DNA of 64,000 nucleotides from Thermoplasmata archaeon. Lineage in GTDB: Archaea > Thermoplasmatota > Thermoplasmata > GCA-020350865. Shown here one piece after another: positions 12,717 through 21,146 of this stretch. Location: assembly GCA_020348445.1 (NCBI GenBank), contig CP070751.1:2549252-2613251 (forward strand), written 5' to 3'. Under the pieces are notes generated by a model. It saw only the letters and a program-made list of their open reading frames with translations. It did not search any database and had not been told where the DNA came from. The position numbers were made by a program, and so were the translations under genes. Within the stretch, counting starts at the first letter, position 1. Each line of letters opens with the position of its first letter.

Positions 12717-14801
12717 CTAACTCACGATCTGGAAAAGATTCCTTTTCAAAAAATTTCCAAGATCTTTTTGACAATACCCGCATTCTGTAATTCCCTCCTC
12801 TATTGAATTGTGTAAACAATGTACGTGATAAGGCTTTTTGCATTGAATGCAGGGCATCTCGCAAAGGTCCTTGGTTTCCACAACAGGTTGCGTTAAAAGA
12901 GGAAGGCCACATACTGGACATTCTTTTTGACCGCATATTAAACATTTGAACAAGGATGTATTCCATAAAGATAAAGAAAGCCTATTTATTGCATCAACTA
13001 AAAACATACTGGGGGCCCAAGATTTCAATATATCAGTAAAAAAGGCTTTTACAGATTCCTTAAGTTCTAGATCACCAATATCGACTAAAATCTCGGGGGG
13101 AACAAGTGGGTAGGCCTGTGGGACCTTGATATTTAACTGGATCCGTTTAATTTTGGGTGCTGCTTCCCCTAAAATATCTCCCGTAGACGAGGGAACTGGT
13201 ATTGTAACCTTATATCCACCATCCACTACCTCAAAATCTTCAGTAACCAATCTCAGTAGTAATTCTTCGAACTCTCTTCTATATATATTATTTATGACCT
13301 GGGAGAGGTTCCGAAGAACATCCATTATCCTCTTTTGCGGTTTCTTGGGCCATTTTTTGATTCCCTCCAGTTCCTCTATATCCAAGCCTTTCAGTTCTTT
13401 AGGTAAAGTTACCACAGGGGGAGAGGGGTATCCTCTTAAATCCATATCGATATCGATAAATTTCGGTCCATATGTTGATATCCTTATAAGGAACCTGTTC
13501 TTGCTCAATCTTTCGGCTCGATACTCCCTTTTGATGACCTCGAATTCACTTTCTATCATGGAATCCTCCACCAGCCTAACCTCTATACCCTGTAGAATAT
13601 CCACGAGATTAGGTGTAAACACATCCTCCCAGTGCTTCAATTTCTTGAAGATTTCTTCAATACCGCGGATCCTGATCAACAGATCATCAGTGAAGGTTAT
13701 GGATGGTTTTTTCGGGAACTCCTTATAATTTATGGTAACGGGATAGATGTTGTAAATCCCAGCATCCAGACATGAAAGGTAGACTACTACATGATACATT
13801 TTATCTCCGACCAACTCCAAAGAGAAATTGTTGGAAAGGTCCAGATACTGCGAAATCGCCTCCTCGTTCTCGAAGGAATCTTCAGTGGCTTCTGCATCTG
13901 GTATCTCAAAATCGTAAGATGGCTCAATTTCAAAAAATGTTTCAGGAAGAACCTCCTTTACCTCAAACACCTCTTCTGAATCGATATCTGAGGATTGTGG
14001 AGTTACCTCGATAAATTCCCCCTCAGGTAGAACCTCGACAACCTCTTCATTTTTCTCTTCACTTGACTTTTTACCATTTTCAATTTCCTTTACCTCGGAT
14101 TGCTTATCCTCCCTCTCAGGATCTTCTTCCTTTATTTCTTCAGATGGTTTTATCCTGGATTGTATATTATAAAGCACATCCACAAGTCTTGGAGGGGACT
14201 TGGGATCCCAGTTGTTCAGATTTTCAAGCAATTCATCTAAACCGTCGATATTCACAAGGAGCTCATCAGTAAAGGAGAAGGTTGGCTTTTTTGGGTAATA
14301 TTCAAAATCTATATTGACAAAGTACTGCTCACCGTCTGGCGAGTTTAAAAACACCGAGATGTCCCTGATGCTGCCGTCGATTAAAGCCAAAGAGAATTCA
14401 TCACTTAATTCAAGATACTGGTTGTAGATCTCTTCAGGTATCAGGCTGACCTCTACAGCGGTCTCTTTACCAGGCTCGAGATCTAAAGGAACGGGAATGT
14501 AGCAATGGGGGCATATTCTCTCTGCACCGTCGACACCAGATATGGCATTAAAATACTGCTCGATGCAACCCTTATGGAAGGCCACACCGCATATATGTTC
14601 GTAATCGGCACCACCCCGCCTGCAGATAGCACATTCTTTTGTTTTTTGCACAACAGTTCTTAGTTTGTGCTGGAATCCGGATTCCACGTCCTTTTCTGAT
14701 GATCGAGAAAATTTATTTTTTGGTACCCATATGGGAATCATAGGTATAAGAAATGACAAAGCGCAAATTTTTTTAGATAACAAGGATGGGAAACCTATCA
14801 T
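12717..14801 (-). CDS. Putative RING E3 ligase: RING-like / four UBC-like (RWD/UEV) repeats / C4HC3 RING (FANCL-like)
   Basis: N-terminal CxxC...HxC-x4-HxxC...CxxC; four (Y/F)P..P plus W..L.D(V/I)L repeats without a catalytic Cys; C-terminal CPVC...CIQCKKPYHVHC...CGYC; exact start uncertain. Confidence 0.8.
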   Translation of the reverse strand: MIGFPSLLSKKICALSFLIPMIPIWVPKNKFSRSSEKDVESGFQHKLRTVVQKTKECAICRRGGADYEHICGVAFHKGCIEQYFNAISGVDGAERICPHCYIPVPLDLEPGKETAVEVSLIPEEIYNQYLELSDEFSLALIDGSIRDISVFLNSPDGEQYFVNIDFEYYPKKPTFSFTDELLVNIDGLDELLENLNNWDPKSPPRLVDVLYNIQSRIKPSEEIKEEDPEREDKQSEVKEIENGKKSSEEKNEEVVEVLPEGEFIEVTPQSSDIDSEEVFEVKEVLPETFFEIEPSYDFEIPDAEATEDSFENEEAISQYLDLSNNFSLELVGDKMYHVVVYLSCLDAGIYNIYPVTINYKEFPKKPSITFTDDLLIRIRGIEEIFKKLKHWEDVFTPNLVDILQGIEVRLVEDSMIESEFEVIKREYRAERLSKNRFLIRISTYGPKFIDIDMDLRGYPSPPVVTLPKELKGLDIEELEGIKKWPKKPQKRIMDVLRNLSQVINNIYRREFEELLLRLVTEDFEVVDGGYKVTIPVPSSTGDILGEAAPKIKRIQLNIKVPQAYPLVPPEILVDIGDLELKESVKAFFTDILKSWAPSMFLVDAINRLSLSLWNTSLFKCLICGQKECPVCGLPLLTQPVVETKDLCEMPCIQCKKPYHVHCLHNSIEEGITECGYCQKDLGNFLKRNLFQIVS

Positions 14802-14915: not shown

Positions 14916-16082
14916 TCAAAGTTCTATCCCGCAGTTTGCGCAGCTTGAATCACCTGGCATTATGGAATCATATCCACAGAATTCGCATTTAGCGGCTTTC
15001 TTGCGCTTTTCCTTCTTATGATCCTTTTTTAGCTTATCAATTGCCTTGTCCGTGGATTTTTGGTGCGACTCCAGTTTAATGCCCACAGATTGCATATCTT
15101 TTTGTATCTTCTGGACGAACTTACCCATTTCATCGATGGTCTTCTCCAGATTCTCCACCTTTTCAGTTAAAACGTGTTTCGGCCTCGCGTATTCCTCCTT
15201 GTACTCAAGAACCAATGGATAGCCCTCAGCAAGAAGCATTGTAGCTTCCACCATACAATCCAATACATCCTGTATGATATGCTCTACCTCAACATTCTCT
15301 ATCTCGACAAACTCCGATTTCTCCCCCAACTCAGGTGATTTTAACCTGAAAATCTTCAGATATTCATTGAGTTGAATTCCTTCTTTGAATTTAGATGGAT
15401 CAAAGACTATTGCCACGGCTTTGGGATTCAAGGATTGGTAGCCAGAGTGATTGACCCTGTCCACAGGGGATAAAAACAGCCCATGGCCTGGGTGCGTGTG
15501 ATACCATCCAACAATCCAGTTTTCATCTGTCAGGTCTTGGTTTATCTCGTCGGCTTTGGCATAGTGCTCATTTTGGAATTCTACCTCAACCAAACTACCG
15601 TGAACAATGGGAATTGCATCCATTATCTGTACTTTGGAATCGTCCACATTCCCAACGAGAAATCCCATGCATTCCACCCAATCCTTTCGTGGTGCCTTGG
15701 GATTGGAAAACCTCATTCCATGCCTAAGCACTTTGTTCAAGGCCCTATAACTGATTAAAACCTTTTCCTTTTCTTTTGGGGGGATCTCCTCCTTTTCCTC
15801 TAATGCCCCTTTCATAGCAACTTCTTGTATATCAGTTTCAGCCAGTTCATCAAGCTCTGATAGATAATCGTCTATTTCTTTCTCTTTCTTTTCCTCCATT
15901 TCCTTGGGCCTTTGCTCGATTTTCTCTTCTTTCTTTTCCTCGATTTCTTTGGGCTCTTTTTCTATCTCTTCCTCAATTTCCCTGGGTTCTTTTTCTATTT
16001 CTTCCCTCAATTGGGAGGACTCCTTTTTGAGCTTCCTTTTAGATTTCTTTCTTTTGACCTTAATCCTCTTTTTCTTAGGCAT
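14916..16082 (-). CDS. JAB/MPN+ (JAMM) metalloprotease, Rpn11-like (start revised to MPKKK at 16082)
   Basis: E..MGFLVG plus GWYHTHPGHGLFLSPVD (E-xn-HxH-x7-S-x2-D); charged N-terminus; coiled coil plus CxxC-CxxC C-terminus. Confidence 0.92.
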   Translation of the reverse strand: MPKKKRIKVKRKKSKRKLKKESSQLREEIEKEPREIEEEIEKEPKEIEEKKEEKIEQRPKEMEEKKEKEIDDYLSELDELAETDIQEVAMKGALEEKEEIPPKEKEKVLISYRALNKVLRHGMRFSNPKAPRKDWVECMGFLVGNVDDSKVQIMDAIPIVHGSLVEVEFQNEHYAKADEINQDLTDENWIVGWYHTHPGHGLFLSPVDRVNHSGYQSLNPKAVAIVFDPSKFKEGIQLNEYLKIFRLKSPELGEKSEFVEIENVEVEHIIQDVLDCMVEATMLLAEGYPLVLEYKEEYARPKHVLTEKVENLEKTIDEMGKFVQKIQKDMQSVGIKLESHQKSTDKAIDKLKKDHKKEKRKKAAKCEFCGYDSIMPGDSSCANCGIEL

Positions 16083-16611
16083 AATTCTGTGTCCACTCCT
16101 TGGCCTTATTATCGAATTCATCTTTATTGTATTTATACTGGGCTCCAGCCTCTCTGTTTAGGGGATCGTCCGGATTGAAGAAAGGAGGATAGCAATGTAT
16201 CATGAGTTTCAGACATTCAATGAGCATGGACAAATCTTTTGTGGGTGTCCATCCCATGGTTTTACTCTCGGGATCCACCTTCCCTATCCTGTCCGGGTTA
16301 ATGATATCAAAACATACATTGTCCTTCCAAAAGCTCTGTGTCGGAGGGGCTCTGTTGATGTCTATATTGGGATGCCATATTCTGGTATGGCAGAACACGC
16401 CTGGTGGATAGAACGGGTAATTGTTGAAGGTCTTGATCTCGAAAACGAACCTTCCGTCTTCATAGGGTGTTTCCTCTGCGCCATAAATCGTAACCTTCAA
16501 ATGACCAACGAAAGACGCCCCAGGCCAAAGCTCTATTATAACGTATCTATCATTCTGAAAGCGTTGCAAGGCTTCAAAATAATCCCTCTCTATGCGCTCG
16601 AAATCCGCCAA
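16075..16611 (-). CDS. Ubiquitin-conjugating enzyme E2 (UBC)
   Basis: TPYEDG.F...YPFYPP...TRIWHPNI...VCFDII...WTP...PDDPLN.EA, canonical E2 motifs with catalytic Cys. Confidence 0.95.
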   Translation of the reverse strand: MADFERIERDYFEALQRFQNDRYVIIELWPGASFVGHLKVTIYGAEETPYEDGRFVFEIKTFNNYPFYPPGVFCHTRIWHPNIDINRAPPTQSFWKDNVCFDIINPDRIGKVDPESKTMGWTPTKDLSMLIECLKLMIHCYPPFFNPDDPLNREAGAQYKYNKDEFDNKAKEWTQNYA

Positions 16612-16613
16612 TA

Positions 16614-17849
16614 CTAGCCCTCCATCTCAATAATGAACTCAGCTTGTTCTCGCTTCAGTTTGCCGTTTTCATCGACAGATGTGTATGTGGCTCTGAGTAT
16701 ATCACGATTTTGGATTGGTAGATCAGACAATCTACTTCCCATGATGTCTTGGCCGGGAGCTGCGATCACTGATCCATCTATGATCTTGGTGATCAAGACC
16801 GTCTCTTTCAAATCCACTCCTTCTTTTTTAAGCGATGATAACATATCAGCAAAAGTAGAATCACTCTTCATTTTAAGGCTCAATTTCACCCTTTCCTTTC
16901 CGCATACAGCACAATTCTCATCCTTGGAGATTTCCACAGGGGTGAATATCCCGTAAGAAGAGCTATATTCAAGATATGAGGGTGACATTATCTCACCAAT
17001 ATTAAGGCCCGAAAGGCGGTGAAGGATTTTCAGCACCTCATGGGAGACTATAGCCGATATGACCGCATTGACAGTCAATATGGAAGGGATTTTGTTCTCT
17101 ATTATATTCTCCACCTCATGGGGCATGAATTCTTCGGCCTTCGTATGCGGGGATTCCTTTGAAAGCCTGGATGCGATTTTCGCAATCATATCAAGTTCCT
17201 TGTCTGAATATTCTTTATGAATACCATGCTCTTTTACGAACTCGTCCTCAGCCTTGAGTATACACTGCTCCCGGCTTCGGGGTTCGCCTGGGATAGAACA
17301 AGCAACGTACACCTTTTCATCTGCTGGAGGTATGGGAAAGAAGCATCGAAGACAGGGAGTTGCATCTTTTAAGAGAGGATCACCTTCCGGGATTATCACC
17401 TGGACATTTCCCTTGAAACCAGTTGCAGCTCCATCAACATATGGCTTGCACAATTCATGTGCCAACCTGTTTAAAGCGAACCTTGCGGAAAAAGAGTCCA
17501 GGCCTCCTGCAATGAGATCCACACCCTCGAATACACTCATTGGTAAATCTTGAAATTTTTGGGTATAGGTTTCGATACTAACATCCGGATTTAGAATCTT
17601 CAGTTTTTCTTTGGCTACCTCAGCTTTGAGTCTGCCTCTATCATTGTCAGTAAAAAGCATCTGCCTCGAAAGGTTCGAGGTCTCGATAGTATCCATGTCT
17701 ATCAAAATTAGATTCCCAACACCCACTAAAGCAAGGTTCTTTGCAATCTCACAACCCAATGCCCCTATACCAACGATTAGCACATGGGAAGAAGAAATGA
17801 CGTCTTGGTCCCAACCCTCAAGGGAAAGATGTCTGGCATACCTTGCCAT
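16614..17849 (-). CDS. Ubiquitin-activating enzyme E1, Uba3/Uba2-like single chain (start revised to MARY at 17849)
   Basis: YARH, GIGALG, DMDTIETSNLSRQMLF, CLRC and CAVC Zn pairs, catalytic CSIPGEPRSREQC, C-terminal UFD-sized domain. Confidence 0.93.
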   Translation of the reverse strand: MARYARHLSLEGWDQDVISSSHVLIVGIGALGCEIAKNLALVGVGNLILIDMDTIETSNLSRQMLFTDNDRGRLKAEVAKEKLKILNPDVSIETYTQKFQDLPMSVFEGVDLIAGGLDSFSARFALNRLAHELCKPYVDGAATGFKGNVQVIIPEGDPLLKDATPCLRCFFPIPPADEKVYVACSIPGEPRSREQCILKAEDEFVKEHGIHKEYSDKELDMIAKIASRLSKESPHTKAEEFMPHEVENIIENKIPSILTVNAVISAIVSHEVLKILHRLSGLNIGEIMSPSYLEYSSSYGIFTPVEISKDENCAVCGKERVKLSLKMKSDSTFADMLSSLKKEGVDLKETVLITKIIDGSVIAAPGQDIMGSRLSDLPIQNRDILRATYTSVDENGKLKREQAEFIIEMEG

Positions 17850-17859
17850 ATCTTTTTTA

Positions 17860-18135
17860 TCACTGGAAAATCCAACCACCCGCTTGTTGAGTAATGATGG
17901 TAATGGTATCCTTTTCAGGTTTGTGGCCCAGATCATTCAACTTCTTTGAAAACACATCATTATCGGAAATGGGCTGGCCCTTATAGATTAGCTGAATCAC
18001 CAAAGCCTGGTGAATCTTATAGGCATTTCTTAGGAGGTTCTTTGTGTCCTTGCATGATGCTTCCTTCGGCACGTTTACAGATTTCGTGCCCTGGTTTGGC
18101 GGCAAACCCATCATCCTAAACTTGTATCTTGGCAT
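17860..18135 (-). CDS. Ubiquitin-like protein with GG followed by a 4-aa propeptide (WIFQ)
   Basis: 91 aa; QLIYKGQPISD aligns with ubiquitin RLIFAGKQLED; DTITII aligns with STLHLV; GG at 17875-17880; first gene of the E1-E2-JAB operon. Confidence 0.9.
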   Translation of the reverse strand: MPRYKFRMMGLPPNQGTKSVNVPKEASCKDTKNLLRNAYKIHQALVIQLIYKGQPISDNDVFSKKLNDLGHKPEKDTITIITQQAGGWIFQ

Positions 18136-19499: not shown

Positions 19500-21146
19500 T
19501 CATTCTCTATTTCTATGAACCATTAATTTCTCAACATCCAACTCGAATGCAGAAATGGGACTCGACAGATCAAAATTAGTAATGACCTGTGGGTGCAATT
19601 CACCGAAAAATCCCAAGGTCTCATCCCCAATTTCAACAGATGCACATCTTCCTTCTATGTAACTACCCCTATAAAGCGGATTAATGGTGTAAGGAATCCC
19701 CAAAGGCCTTAATATCCCCTCAACAAGGGATTTCACCTCAGTAAAACTGGCCTTTGGGTGTATTGAGACACCGGCCAGCTTGTACACATTATGTTCTTCT
19801 GGGACAGTTATTCCAACTTCAAAAATTTTTTGAGGAAGATCCCTGTGTCTATTGGCCTGTAGAGTTCGTAGGAGGCTAGGAAGCAAGGAAACCCTAAGGC
19901 AGCTGTGTTCCTCTGTTAGAGGGTCGTTGGCCAGGGCAACATCAATTGGCTCTACTCCCATTTTTTCGAACTGCTCCTTTATACTAGAGAGGGTGAGGGT
20001 CAGCACCTCGAAGAATCCATAGCCCACCATTATCATCCTCAATTTCCTACAAAATTCGATTATCTCCATGGGCCTTCCAAATGTCATAGCCGAGGGCAGC
20101 TCAGGCTCAAATTTCATGTAGCCATAACTAATGGCGATATCCTCCACCAAGTCGATAGGATGTAGAATATCACCCCTGTATGCTGGTACAAGGGTAGTTA
20201 TTATATCACCTTTTTTCTCTGCACCAAAGCGCATCTTTTCAAGATGTGAGGCCGCTTCATCCACAGAAATATTAATGCCCAGCATAGAATTGACATATCC
20301 CAAATCAAGGTCCATTTTCTCTGGTTCTAAGTTTGGGGTATTGATGCTCTCATCCTGATAAACAACCTCAACCTTCTCAATTTTTCCTCCCCGTTCAGCC
20401 AGTGCAGTTGCTATTATGTTCAATGCCTGGTTTACTGCATTCATGTCGGTGCCTGTTAGGTCTAAGAAGATATCCTTTGTGTCTTCGGTCACTGTAGTCA
20501 GAGTGCCATTGATTATGGGTGGAAATGAAAGGACCTCGTTGTTAGAATCTAGGATTATGGGATAGCGAGCAAAACCCTCCAATGTCCAGGCATAGTCCCG
20601 GCCTTTTTCGTGTTTTCTCAGAATCTCCTCCAAATCCATGGTCTCATTCTTTCCGAGGGGTACGAACTGGATGCTCTCAGGATCAACAGCCTTATAGGTG
20701 AATGGCGGGGTGATATCCCGATAGTCGTGGACCCCTATTGCCATCTTGGCTCTCTTTCTTCCCAAAGTGAGGTGCAGTTTCTCCTGCATATCCATTAAGG
20801 ATGTAATAAAAAAGTCTGTCATGGTTACGTCGCGAACAAGGCCGCTTACAATATAGGGTCTCACCTCATTTACAGTTGGATCAACTATGAGCTTGACATC
20901 AGACTCACCAATTGGATACTTCTTGAGTCCGGTCTCTAGTTCCAGATATCCTCTTAATGCTCTGGCCACTCCTTCCACAGAATATAAATCTGGCCTGTCA
21001 GGAAAGAATTCGATATCCATCTGCGTGTAATCTATCCTCCCAATATCGGCACCCATCATCGGGATGATTTCCTGGAGCTTCTCCATCTCGATTTTGGTGC
21101 CGAGAAGGTCTATTAGATCGTCGTATTCGATGGATATCACTGGCAT
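19500..21146 (-). CDS. pheT: Phenylalanine--tRNA ligase beta subunit (archaeal type)
   Basis: PDRPDLYSVEG.ARA, QEKLH...GR.R, FPPIING, YR.DILHPIDLVEDIAI.YGY. Confidence 0.96.
   Translation of the reverse strand: MPVISIEYDDLIDLLGTKIEMEKLQEIIPMMGADIGRIDYTQMDIEFFPDRPDLYSVEGVARALRGYLELETGLKKYPIGESDVKLIVDPTVNEVRPYIVSGLVRDVTMTDFFITSLMDMQEKLHLTLGRKRAKMAIGVHDYRDITPPFTYKAVDPESIQFVPLGKNETMDLEEILRKHEKGRDYAWTLEGFARYPIILDSNNEVLSFPPIINGTLTTVTEDTKDIFLDLTGTDMNAVNQALNIIATALAERGGKIEKVEVVYQDESINTPNLEPEKMDLDLGYVNSMLGINISVDEAASHLEKMRFGAEKKGDIITTLVPAYRGDILHPIDLVEDIAISYGYMKFEPELPSAMTFGRPMEIIEFCRKLRMIMVGYGFFEVLTLTLSSIKEQFEKMGVEPIDVALANDPLTEEHSCLRVSLLPSLLRTLQANRHRDLPQKIFEVGITVPEEHNVYKLAGVSIHPKASFTEVKSLVEGILRPLGIPYTINPLYRGSYIEGRCASVEIGDETLGFFGELHPQVITNFDLSSPISAFELDVEKLMVHRNRE

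Follow-up and report, generated by a model that had tools for sequence, protein, structure and literature searches.

A candidate archaeal E3 ligase with two RING-like fingers and four inactive E2 folds, built like FANCL and encoded in a ubiquitin operon

Introduction

Elaborate substrate-binding architectures in E3 ubiquitin ligases have been regarded as eukaryotic inventions. The archaeal locus described here raises the question of what a large multi-domain protein might do at the end of a ubiquitin operon. It lies within a 64,000-nucleotide stretch of DNA from a Thermoplasmata archaeon (assembly GCA_020348445.1, contig CP070751.1, positions 2,549,252 to 2,613,251), the whole of which is called the window below. 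An open reading frame (ORF) of 694 codons on the minus strand (12717..14801) is the last gene of a one-strand cluster encoding, in order, a ubiquitin-like protein, an activating enzyme (E1), a conjugating enzyme (E2), a JAB protease and the protein in question. ORF scanning, homologue alignment, an AlphaFold2 model and domain parsing divide its product into an N-terminal RING-like finger (RING-N), a UBC/RWD-like domain (U1), an acidic linker, three further UBC/RWD-like domains (U2, U3 and U4) and a C-terminal finger (RING-C). We report that this protein appears, from its sequence and predicted structure, to belong to an undescribed archaeal multi-RWD RING family whose core has the architecture of FANCL, and that it is probably the E3 ligase of the cascade encoded beside it.

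The archaeal ubiquitin E3s characterised in the literature we found are RING proteins (one from Caldiarchaeum and one from Helarchaeia), none of them described with RWD or UBC-like domains. In Caldiarchaeum subterraneum, the E3 encoded by the ubiquitin operon is a small RING finger protein (srfp) (PMC5654768). Full-text searches found no archaeal multi-RWD RING protein described; these did not reach papers behind subscription or the tables that supplement Asgard surveys, where an earlier mention is possible. The sole paper found with both 'FANCL' and 'Asgard' contains one Asgard RWD-like sequence, and in it the RWD domains of FANCL are proposed to have arisen during eukaryogenesis (PMC6601020). 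An E2 clade of Thermoplasmatota appears in a 2023 preprint (10.1101/2023.07.25.550441).

Results

Four inactive UBC/RWD folds

An earlier note on this DNA, made from the sequence, had described four repeats with YPxxP-type turns and no catalytic cysteine, an acidic linker between repeats 1 and 2, and a zinc finger at each end, the second with an extra CLIC pair ahead of it. All of these elements were recovered. The turns YYPKKP, EFPKKP, GYPSPP and AYPLVPP lie respectively in U1 (residues 118-220; 14142..14450), U2 (residues 308-412; 13566..13880), U3 (residues 420-505; 13287..13544) and U4 (residues 506-615; 12957..13286), all features of the ORF and of the operon being on the minus strand. 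Conservation was read throughout from an alignment of 24 homologues with 40-62% identity (the search of the protein collection gave 32 proteins, mostly full-length), and in this alignment the prolines of the YP..P turn and the tryptophan of each repeat were kept.

The repeats are also linked statistically. U1 and U2 share 39% identity (BLASTP E 3e-24), and on this evidence U1 is a duplicate of U2; hhalign joined U1 with U2 at 99.8% probability, U1 with U3 at 95% and U2 with U3 at 94%. U4 was matched by Pfam RWD and UQ_con and by E2 sequences in the PDB, with E values down to 2e-7 for the family profile, and is the repeat closest to a true E2 by sequence. Among the members of the family, Pfam RWD matched 41 of 47 (best E 1.6e-10) and UQ_con matched 34. 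Both the HPN motif and the cysteine that follow the YP..P turn are missing from all four domains. U1, U3 and U4 contain no cysteine at all, and the only one in U2 (Cys344) stands before the turn and alternates with serine in homologues.

The expectation of the earlier note that the repeats would model as a UBC/RWD fold was borne out by AlphaFold2 and Foldseek. The model, built on 47 sequences, had a mean predicted local distance difference test score (pLDDT) of 76.9, with values of about 90 for the two fingers and each of the U domains; only residues 1-53, 112-119, 223-308 and 541-546 fell below 50. Each U domain was modelled as a helix, a beta-meander, the YP..P turn and further helices. On structure alignment the U domains matched E2s and the RWD domains of GCN2 and RWDD1 with a VIA Z of about 10 over roughly 97-114 residues (2.5-3.6 Å), and Z values to GCN2, RWDD1 and E2 structures ranged from 10 to 12.7 when the protein and a 366-residue relative were taken together. 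For example, U1 (122-220) aligned to the E2 2h2y_D with Z 10.1 (96 residues, 3.0 Å) and U4 (508-611) to 8adl_C with Z 10.5 (98 residues, 2.8 Å). U3 and U4 form the first and second halves of a predicted double-RWD unit, which aligned as a whole (426-615) to the double RWD of Knl1 with Z 10.2 (168 residues, 5.1 Å).

Between U1 and U2 lies the acidic linker (residues 221-307; 13881..14141), 87 residues of which 38% are Asp or Glu and which is predicted to be disordered from its composition and the model. The alignment showed short conserved motifs within it (VEV.PE, VEVT and LPATFFE). These hydrophobic-acidic motifs resemble strands of the SUMO-interaction type and, to speculate by analogy, might also bind the ubiquitin-like protein.

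Two cross-brace zinc fingers

Sixteen of the 18 cysteines of the protein fall within the two fingers. RING-N (residues 54-110; 14472..14642), delimited by alignment, Pfam and a PDB profile search, carries the motifs CAIC, H-x-C-G-V-A-F-H-K-G-C and CPHC at residues 57-100. RING-C (residues 616-685; 12747..12956), delimited by alignment and a PDB profile search, carries CPVC, CIQCKKPYHVHC and CGYC at residues 628-677, with the CLIC pair at 620-623. Each finger presents eight predicted zinc ligands in cross-brace spacing (C-x2-C ... C/H-x-C/H ... C-x2-C). Because the ligands of RING-N (C57, C60, H69, C71, H76, C79, C97 and C100) and of RING-C (C628, C631, C651, C654, H659, C662, C674 and C677) are invariant or nearly so in the 24 homologues, the fingers and their motifs are not a product of chance. 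The extra cysteines C620, C623 and C647 are conserved to the same degree and, possibly with H661, could form a third zinc site.

The C-x4-H-x2-C spacing found in both fingers is like that of PHD and RINGv fingers. RING-N (C2-H-C-H-C3), in which histidine replaces the third cysteine, has more canonical RING features than the C4HC3 RING-C, namely the Ile of CAIC and the Pro of CPHC. RING matches across the family were weak but consistent: zf-RING_2 matched 25 of the 47 members at E <= 0.1 (best E 8e-5), Prok-RING_1 reached a best E of 3.8e-6, and profile matches to the PDB paired RING-N with the NSE1 RING (E 3e-3) and RING-C with RBX1 (E 0.02). RING-C is the finger common to the whole family, and RING-N is present only in some of its forms. 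The idea that the two fingers are duplicates of one another was dropped, the similarity of RING-N to RING-C being not significant (BLASTP E 0.22; hhalign probability 20%).

Likeness to FANCL

When the model was compared with the PDB by Foldseek, the best matches were FANCL chains (7kzp_L, E 3.6e-8, followed by 9a0j_L, 7kzp_M and 3k1l_B), and after these came BRE in fifth place, listerin, Mediator subunits, Knl1 and CENP-O. In FANCL, the E3 of the Fanconi anaemia core complex, an ELF domain and a double RWD precede a C4HC3 RING whose core is C-x4-H-x2-C. This order of three UBC-like folds and then a C4HC3 RING is found in U2-U3-U4 plus RING-C, with U2 at the position of the ELF domain in the model and in the Foldseek and structure alignments. 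U3-U4 (413-617) aligned to the central domain of FANCL (3zqs_A) with Z 9.1 over 173 residues at 8.1 Å. Whole FANCL chains were colinear with U2-U3-U4 (model 316-629 to FANCL 2-297), but the template-modelling (TM) score was 0.15-0.27 and the root-mean-square deviation (rmsd) exceeded 13 Å, so the likeness to FANCL extends to fold and domain order but not to the rigid arrangement as predicted.

The same order recurs in the 366-residue relative P0053, the model of which (pLDDT 87.8) also had FANCL as its best Foldseek match (E 5.7e-9). A search independent of Foldseek aligned residues 6-366 of P0053 to residues 2-370 of FANCL, and the RWD-RING portion of listerin aligned to U4 plus RING-C of P0053 with Z 8.8 (152 residues, 9.0 Å). 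In the ESM Atlas the core lay nearest to two Promethearchaeota clusters, one with 54 members (score 0.92) and one with 84 (score 0.90), followed by eukaryotic FANCL, RWD-plus-RING and listerin clusters at 0.88, which the tool rates as leads only.

Signal specific to FANCL at the sequence level was marginal at best. None of the FANCL Pfam models (FANCL_d1, d2, d3 and FANCL_C) matched the 694-residue protein above the cut-off. Among the 47 family members FANCL_d1 matched two (best 21.7 bits against a cut-off of 23.8, E 2e-4) and FANCL_C matched two (best E 0.015), while d2 and d3 were absent from the 25 Pfam families listed for them; the 60 PDB sequences best matched by profile did not include FANCL either. 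The comparison with FANCL made in the earlier note holds for the domain order and the fold, but for neither the rigid three-dimensional arrangement in the model nor any detectable FANCL-specific sequence.

Compared with FANCL, the archaeal protein adds an N-terminal RING, a fourth UBC-like domain and the acidic linker, and has three more conserved cysteines before and within its C-terminal finger. Its predicted inter-domain arrangement differs, and it is prokaryotic and operon-encoded, with an operon E2 no nearer to UBE2T than to UBE2K or UBE2D2. Because the FANCL Pfam matches are marginal, FANCL is missing from the 60 best PDB profile matches and the operon E2 resembles all three of these human E2s equally, we describe the protein as built like FANCL and not as FANCL, orthology not being demonstrable from the sequence and the model. 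Listerin (LTN1), with its C-terminal RWD-RING, and RNF25 (RWD plus RING) are further E3s in which an RWD fold adjoins a RING, and the ESM Atlas has both among its look-alikes. Judging from the domain sets of their clusters, these have a single RWD and one RING; they are otherwise unrelated proteins and are eukaryotic only.

The ubiquitin operon

Upstream of the candidate E3 gene (called the E3 gene below) lie a JAB/MPN metalloprotease gene (14916..16121; Pfam JAB E 9e-15), an E2 gene of the UQ_con family (16075..16611) with HPN at residues 80-82 and Cys100 as identified by Pfam and alignment, a ThiF-family E1 gene (16614..17936; Pfam and NCBIfam) and, from the ORF scan, a gene for a ubiquitin-like precursor of 91 residues that ends in GG plus four residues (17860..18135; Pfam ubiquitin E 5e-3, below the cut-off). 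A convergent gene for undecaprenyl-diphosphate synthase marks the end of the cluster. The E3 ORF is the only gene of this operon that bears a RING. The same gene order was found in contigs of three related metagenome-assembled genomes (MAGs). The Caldiarchaeum srfp is likewise a RING protein encoded with ubiquitin, E1, E2 and an Rpn11/JAB protease, and the ubiquitin-like precursor there also has residues after GG (PMC5654768). It is a small RING finger protein by the description in that paper, whereas the protein described here runs to 694 residues and combines two fingers with four dead E2 folds.

Profile comparison of the operon E2 with the PDB placed UBE2K, UBE2D2 and UBE2T equal (E ~1e-18). 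A designation as 'UBE2T-like', suggested by coral E2 T-like proteins in a word-indexed search, was dropped on account of this equal ranking. Canonical E2s have about 7 residues between HPN and the catalytic cysteine; in the operon E2 there are 17, a stretch conserved in each of the 13 relatives aligned. Complex prediction of the E2 with RING-N plus U1 (54-222) and with U2 to RING-C (305-694) gave a median of 0.27 against a mark of 0.32, a result that says nothing either way on binding. In the JAB protein (401 residues) the JAB domain occupies residues 119-233 only; relatives align from about residue 121 and the N-terminal third is variable.

Operon linkage is not universal within the genus, because in one closed genome (Methanomassiliicoccales archaeon bin396, CP070739) the E3 gene has sugar-modification genes on one side and the prenyltransferase gene on the other, with the E2 about 185 kb away. 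The gene for the beta subunit of phenylalanyl-tRNA synthetase flanks the operon in the window (19500-21146) and also adjoins a short double-RING gene on a contig from another class (L026; G313:C101); this adjacency may be either a relic of locus ancestry or a coincidence.

Family forms and distribution

A HMMER search of 1.84 billion representatives gave 52 clusters, the domains of which were parsed with profiles cut from the close alignment. Four forms were distinguished. The clade of the window has the order RING-N, U1, linker, U2, U3, U4, RING-C (650-723 residues when complete). A shorter double-RING form has three U domains between the two fingers (433-495 residues; P0036, labelled 'Thermoplasmata archaeon', and P0038). 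The third and fourth forms have no RING-N: one consists of a U domain, a linker, three U domains and RING-C (571-634 residues), and the other, of three U domains and RING-C (350-460 residues), has the size and order of FANCL. Close relatives are labelled as Thermoplasmata or Methanomassiliicoccales MAGs, and the labelled members of the third and fourth forms as Promethearchaeota, Lokiarchaeota or Sigynarchaeota MAGs. The 'RWD domain-containing' proteins of Promethearchaeota and Lokiarchaeota (P0041, P0043, P0046, P0088 and P0089) are true relatives (E 1e-26 to 1e-34, 23-29% identity) of U-U-U-RING or U-linker-U-U-U-RING layout and share the extra cysteine pair before the finger; they differ in lacking the N-terminal RING and in having a linker rich in Pro, Gln and Ser instead of an acidic one.

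Among reference genomes, all five species of the window's genus have the full form. Searches of the only other genus of the order and of 296 further sampled genomes of the class (Thermoplasmata, going by record titles) did not find it, two of the latter giving a single-domain match only. Across the phylum, of which 401 genomes were sampled, the shorter double-RING form (RING-U-U-U-RING) occurred in three further genera of two families, and a multi-RWD RING protein was found in four genomes, as against 95 with UQ_con above the Pfam cut-off. Most of the UQ_con matches were ORFs of 160-200 residues. An E2 was present in each of the eight tested genomes with a multi-RWD RING protein (the query was the window's E2 for G000-G004 and UQ_con for G302, G313 and G323), and the sole genome of the order without such a protein (G005) had no E2 match. 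This co-occurrence is suggestive and not decisive, because UQ_con is common in the phylum and the relatives are not independent.

Reading frame and start codon

The existing call for the E3 gene starts at an internal GTG (residue 39), giving 656 residues. The true start is probably the ATG at 14801 (694 residues), since residues 14-30 are conserved across homologues and GAGG lies about 9 nt upstream of this codon. The N-terminal segment so gained contains a conserved, hydrophobic, proline-rich motif (residues 12-30; 14712..14768; consensus L.PMIP.WVPK), recognised by alignment and hydropathy and modelled with low pLDDT. Its hydropathy is the highest in the protein (2.26 in a 15-residue window) and basic residues flank it; a role in membrane association or docking is possible. 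An NCBIfam scan gave no match for the 694-residue protein. The listed holders of the E3 stretch are DNA runs of sediment metagenomes, with no RNA data set among them.

Other ubiquitin-related genes in the genome

A second, different cassette for a ubiquitin-like (Ubl) protein lies outside the window in the same genome (G000:C1:2151000-2161000; L018:1830-5528). It encodes a ThiF E1, a fusion of JAB protease and Ig-like (Big_7) domains and a 229-residue Ubl-E2 fusion (ubiquitin domain at 11-72, UQ_con at 137-216), with no RING gene among the five ORFs scanned, and it recalls the Ubl/E2/JAB/E1 sets of bacteria. The operon E3 may not be the only RING-like protein of the genome, because two ORFs of 348 residues, also outside the window (L019:2928-3974 and L020:1812-2858, plus strand), carry weak RING/PHD-like fingers. 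The matches were to zf-RING_2 (E 1.7e-3) with C1_1 in the one case and to PHD (E 6e-4), beside a TPR protein, in the other.

Discussion

What, then, does the last gene of the operon encode? An E3 ligase for the adjacent cascade is the most economical answer, because this is the only RING gene of the operon, it occupies a position like that of srfp, and the structural relatives of the whole chain are E3s; we consider it the probable one, judging from sequence and model. The three parts of FANCL have separate partners: ubiquitin for the ELF domain, substrate for the double RWD and the E2 for the RING. In a cascade of this kind the JAB protease would trim the ubiquitin-like precursor so that it ends in GG, its loading would be the work of the E1 and the E2 (through Cys100), and one or both fingers would dock the charged E2. 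The dead UBC/RWD domains would serve as binding platforms; by analogy, U3-U4 would hold substrate while U1 and U2, the counterparts of the ELF domain, would hold ubiquitin, and the acidic linker would lend reach to the module of RING-N and U1.

Several observations weigh against a ligase. The Pfam RWD score of the protein itself is 19.2 bits against a cut-off of 22.8, and RING-N reaches zf-RING_2 with 17.6 bits (E 4.8e-3) against a cut-off of 27.3. A 'linchpin' Arg or Lys directly follows the last cysteine in many active RINGs; in neither finger is this residue basic (Tyr101 and Gln678), and RING-C has Gly in place of the usual Pro after the seventh ligand. The E3 gene lies away from the E1 and E2 genes in one member of the genus and in three other lineages. 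UBC/RWD folds and C4HC3 fingers are also known in scaffolds that are not ligases, such as those of the kinetochore and Mediator, BRE and PHD readers.

One alternative is that the protein is a non-catalytic ubiquitin receptor or scaffold, in which dead E2 folds bind ubiquitin or conjugates in the manner of UEV/Tsg101, Mms2 and BRE, the fingers are structural or bind other ligands, and conjugates are read or organised, not made. Taken singly, the U domains are about as close to UEV/Tsg101, Vps37A and Mms2 (Z 8-9) as to E2s, and BRE, a multi-UEV scaffold, is the Foldseek match next after the FANCL chains; the PHD-like spacing of the fingers, the want of a basic residue after the last cysteine and the sub-threshold RING profile matches would also suit such a role. 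It fits less well with two conserved cross-brace fingers, one of which has the CAIC and CPHC features of RINGs that bind E2s, or with true E3s (FANCL and listerin) as the best matches to the whole chain. Moreover, the gene stands where characterised archaeal operons have a small RING E3 (PMC5654768), and the operon has no other RING. We regard a receptor or scaffold as unlikely. The protein might instead be a ligase that builds chains, with a dead UBC domain pairing with an active E2 to position the acceptor ubiquitin, as Mms2/Uev1 does with Ubc13, one RING holding the donor E2~Ub and the other bringing a second E2. The alignment of U1 and U4 to Mms2/Ubc13 and Uev1 entries (Z 8.1-8.4), the significant likeness of U4 to true E2 cores and the combination of four E2-like folds with two RINGs in one chain would allow for this, but the proposal is one of pure analogy. 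We know of no case in which the same folds in FANCL, listerin or RNF25 act as chain-building pairs, and have counted this against it; such a role seems to us distinctly improbable.

A true orthologue of FANCL, which would attach single ubiquitins to specific sites of a DNA clamp-like substrate in DNA-damage signalling, would account for FANCL as the top structural match, for the shared domain order and for the FANCL clusters among the nearest eukaryotic look-alikes in the ESM Atlas. It is nonetheless very hard to reconcile with FANCL Pfam matches in only two of the 47 members, all below the cut-off, with the absence of FANCL from the 60 best PDB profile matches, with an operon E2 no nearer to UBE2T than to UBE2K or UBE2D, and with neighbouring genes that offer no DNA-repair context, and we give it little credence. 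An E3 ligase built like FANCL is the reading we prefer.

A broader proposal can be put forward only tentatively, and we think it possible and not probable: the archaeal multi-RWD RING family, found under Promethearchaeota and Lokiarchaeota labels and in a few Thermoplasmatota lineages, may be the prokaryotic forerunner of the RWD-RING ligases of eukaryotes, namely FANCL and possibly also listerin and RNF25, so that the ELF-DRWD-RING arrangement would predate eukaryotes. The double-RING form of Thermoplasmatota would then be a self-contained two-site ligase, in which the donor E2~Ub sits on one finger while substrate and acceptor ubiquitin are held by the dead E2 folds. A conserved archaeal family with the full domain order of FANCL, in a ubiquitin operon that looks to be in working order, would move the origin of this architecture back. 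With a single ubiquitin, E1, E2, deubiquitylase and E3, the operon would also offer a small, defined system for testing directly what dead E2 folds contribute to a ligase, and the occurrence of the family both in Thermoplasmatota and under Asgard labels bears on the extent to which ubiquitylation of the eukaryotic type has spread among archaea.

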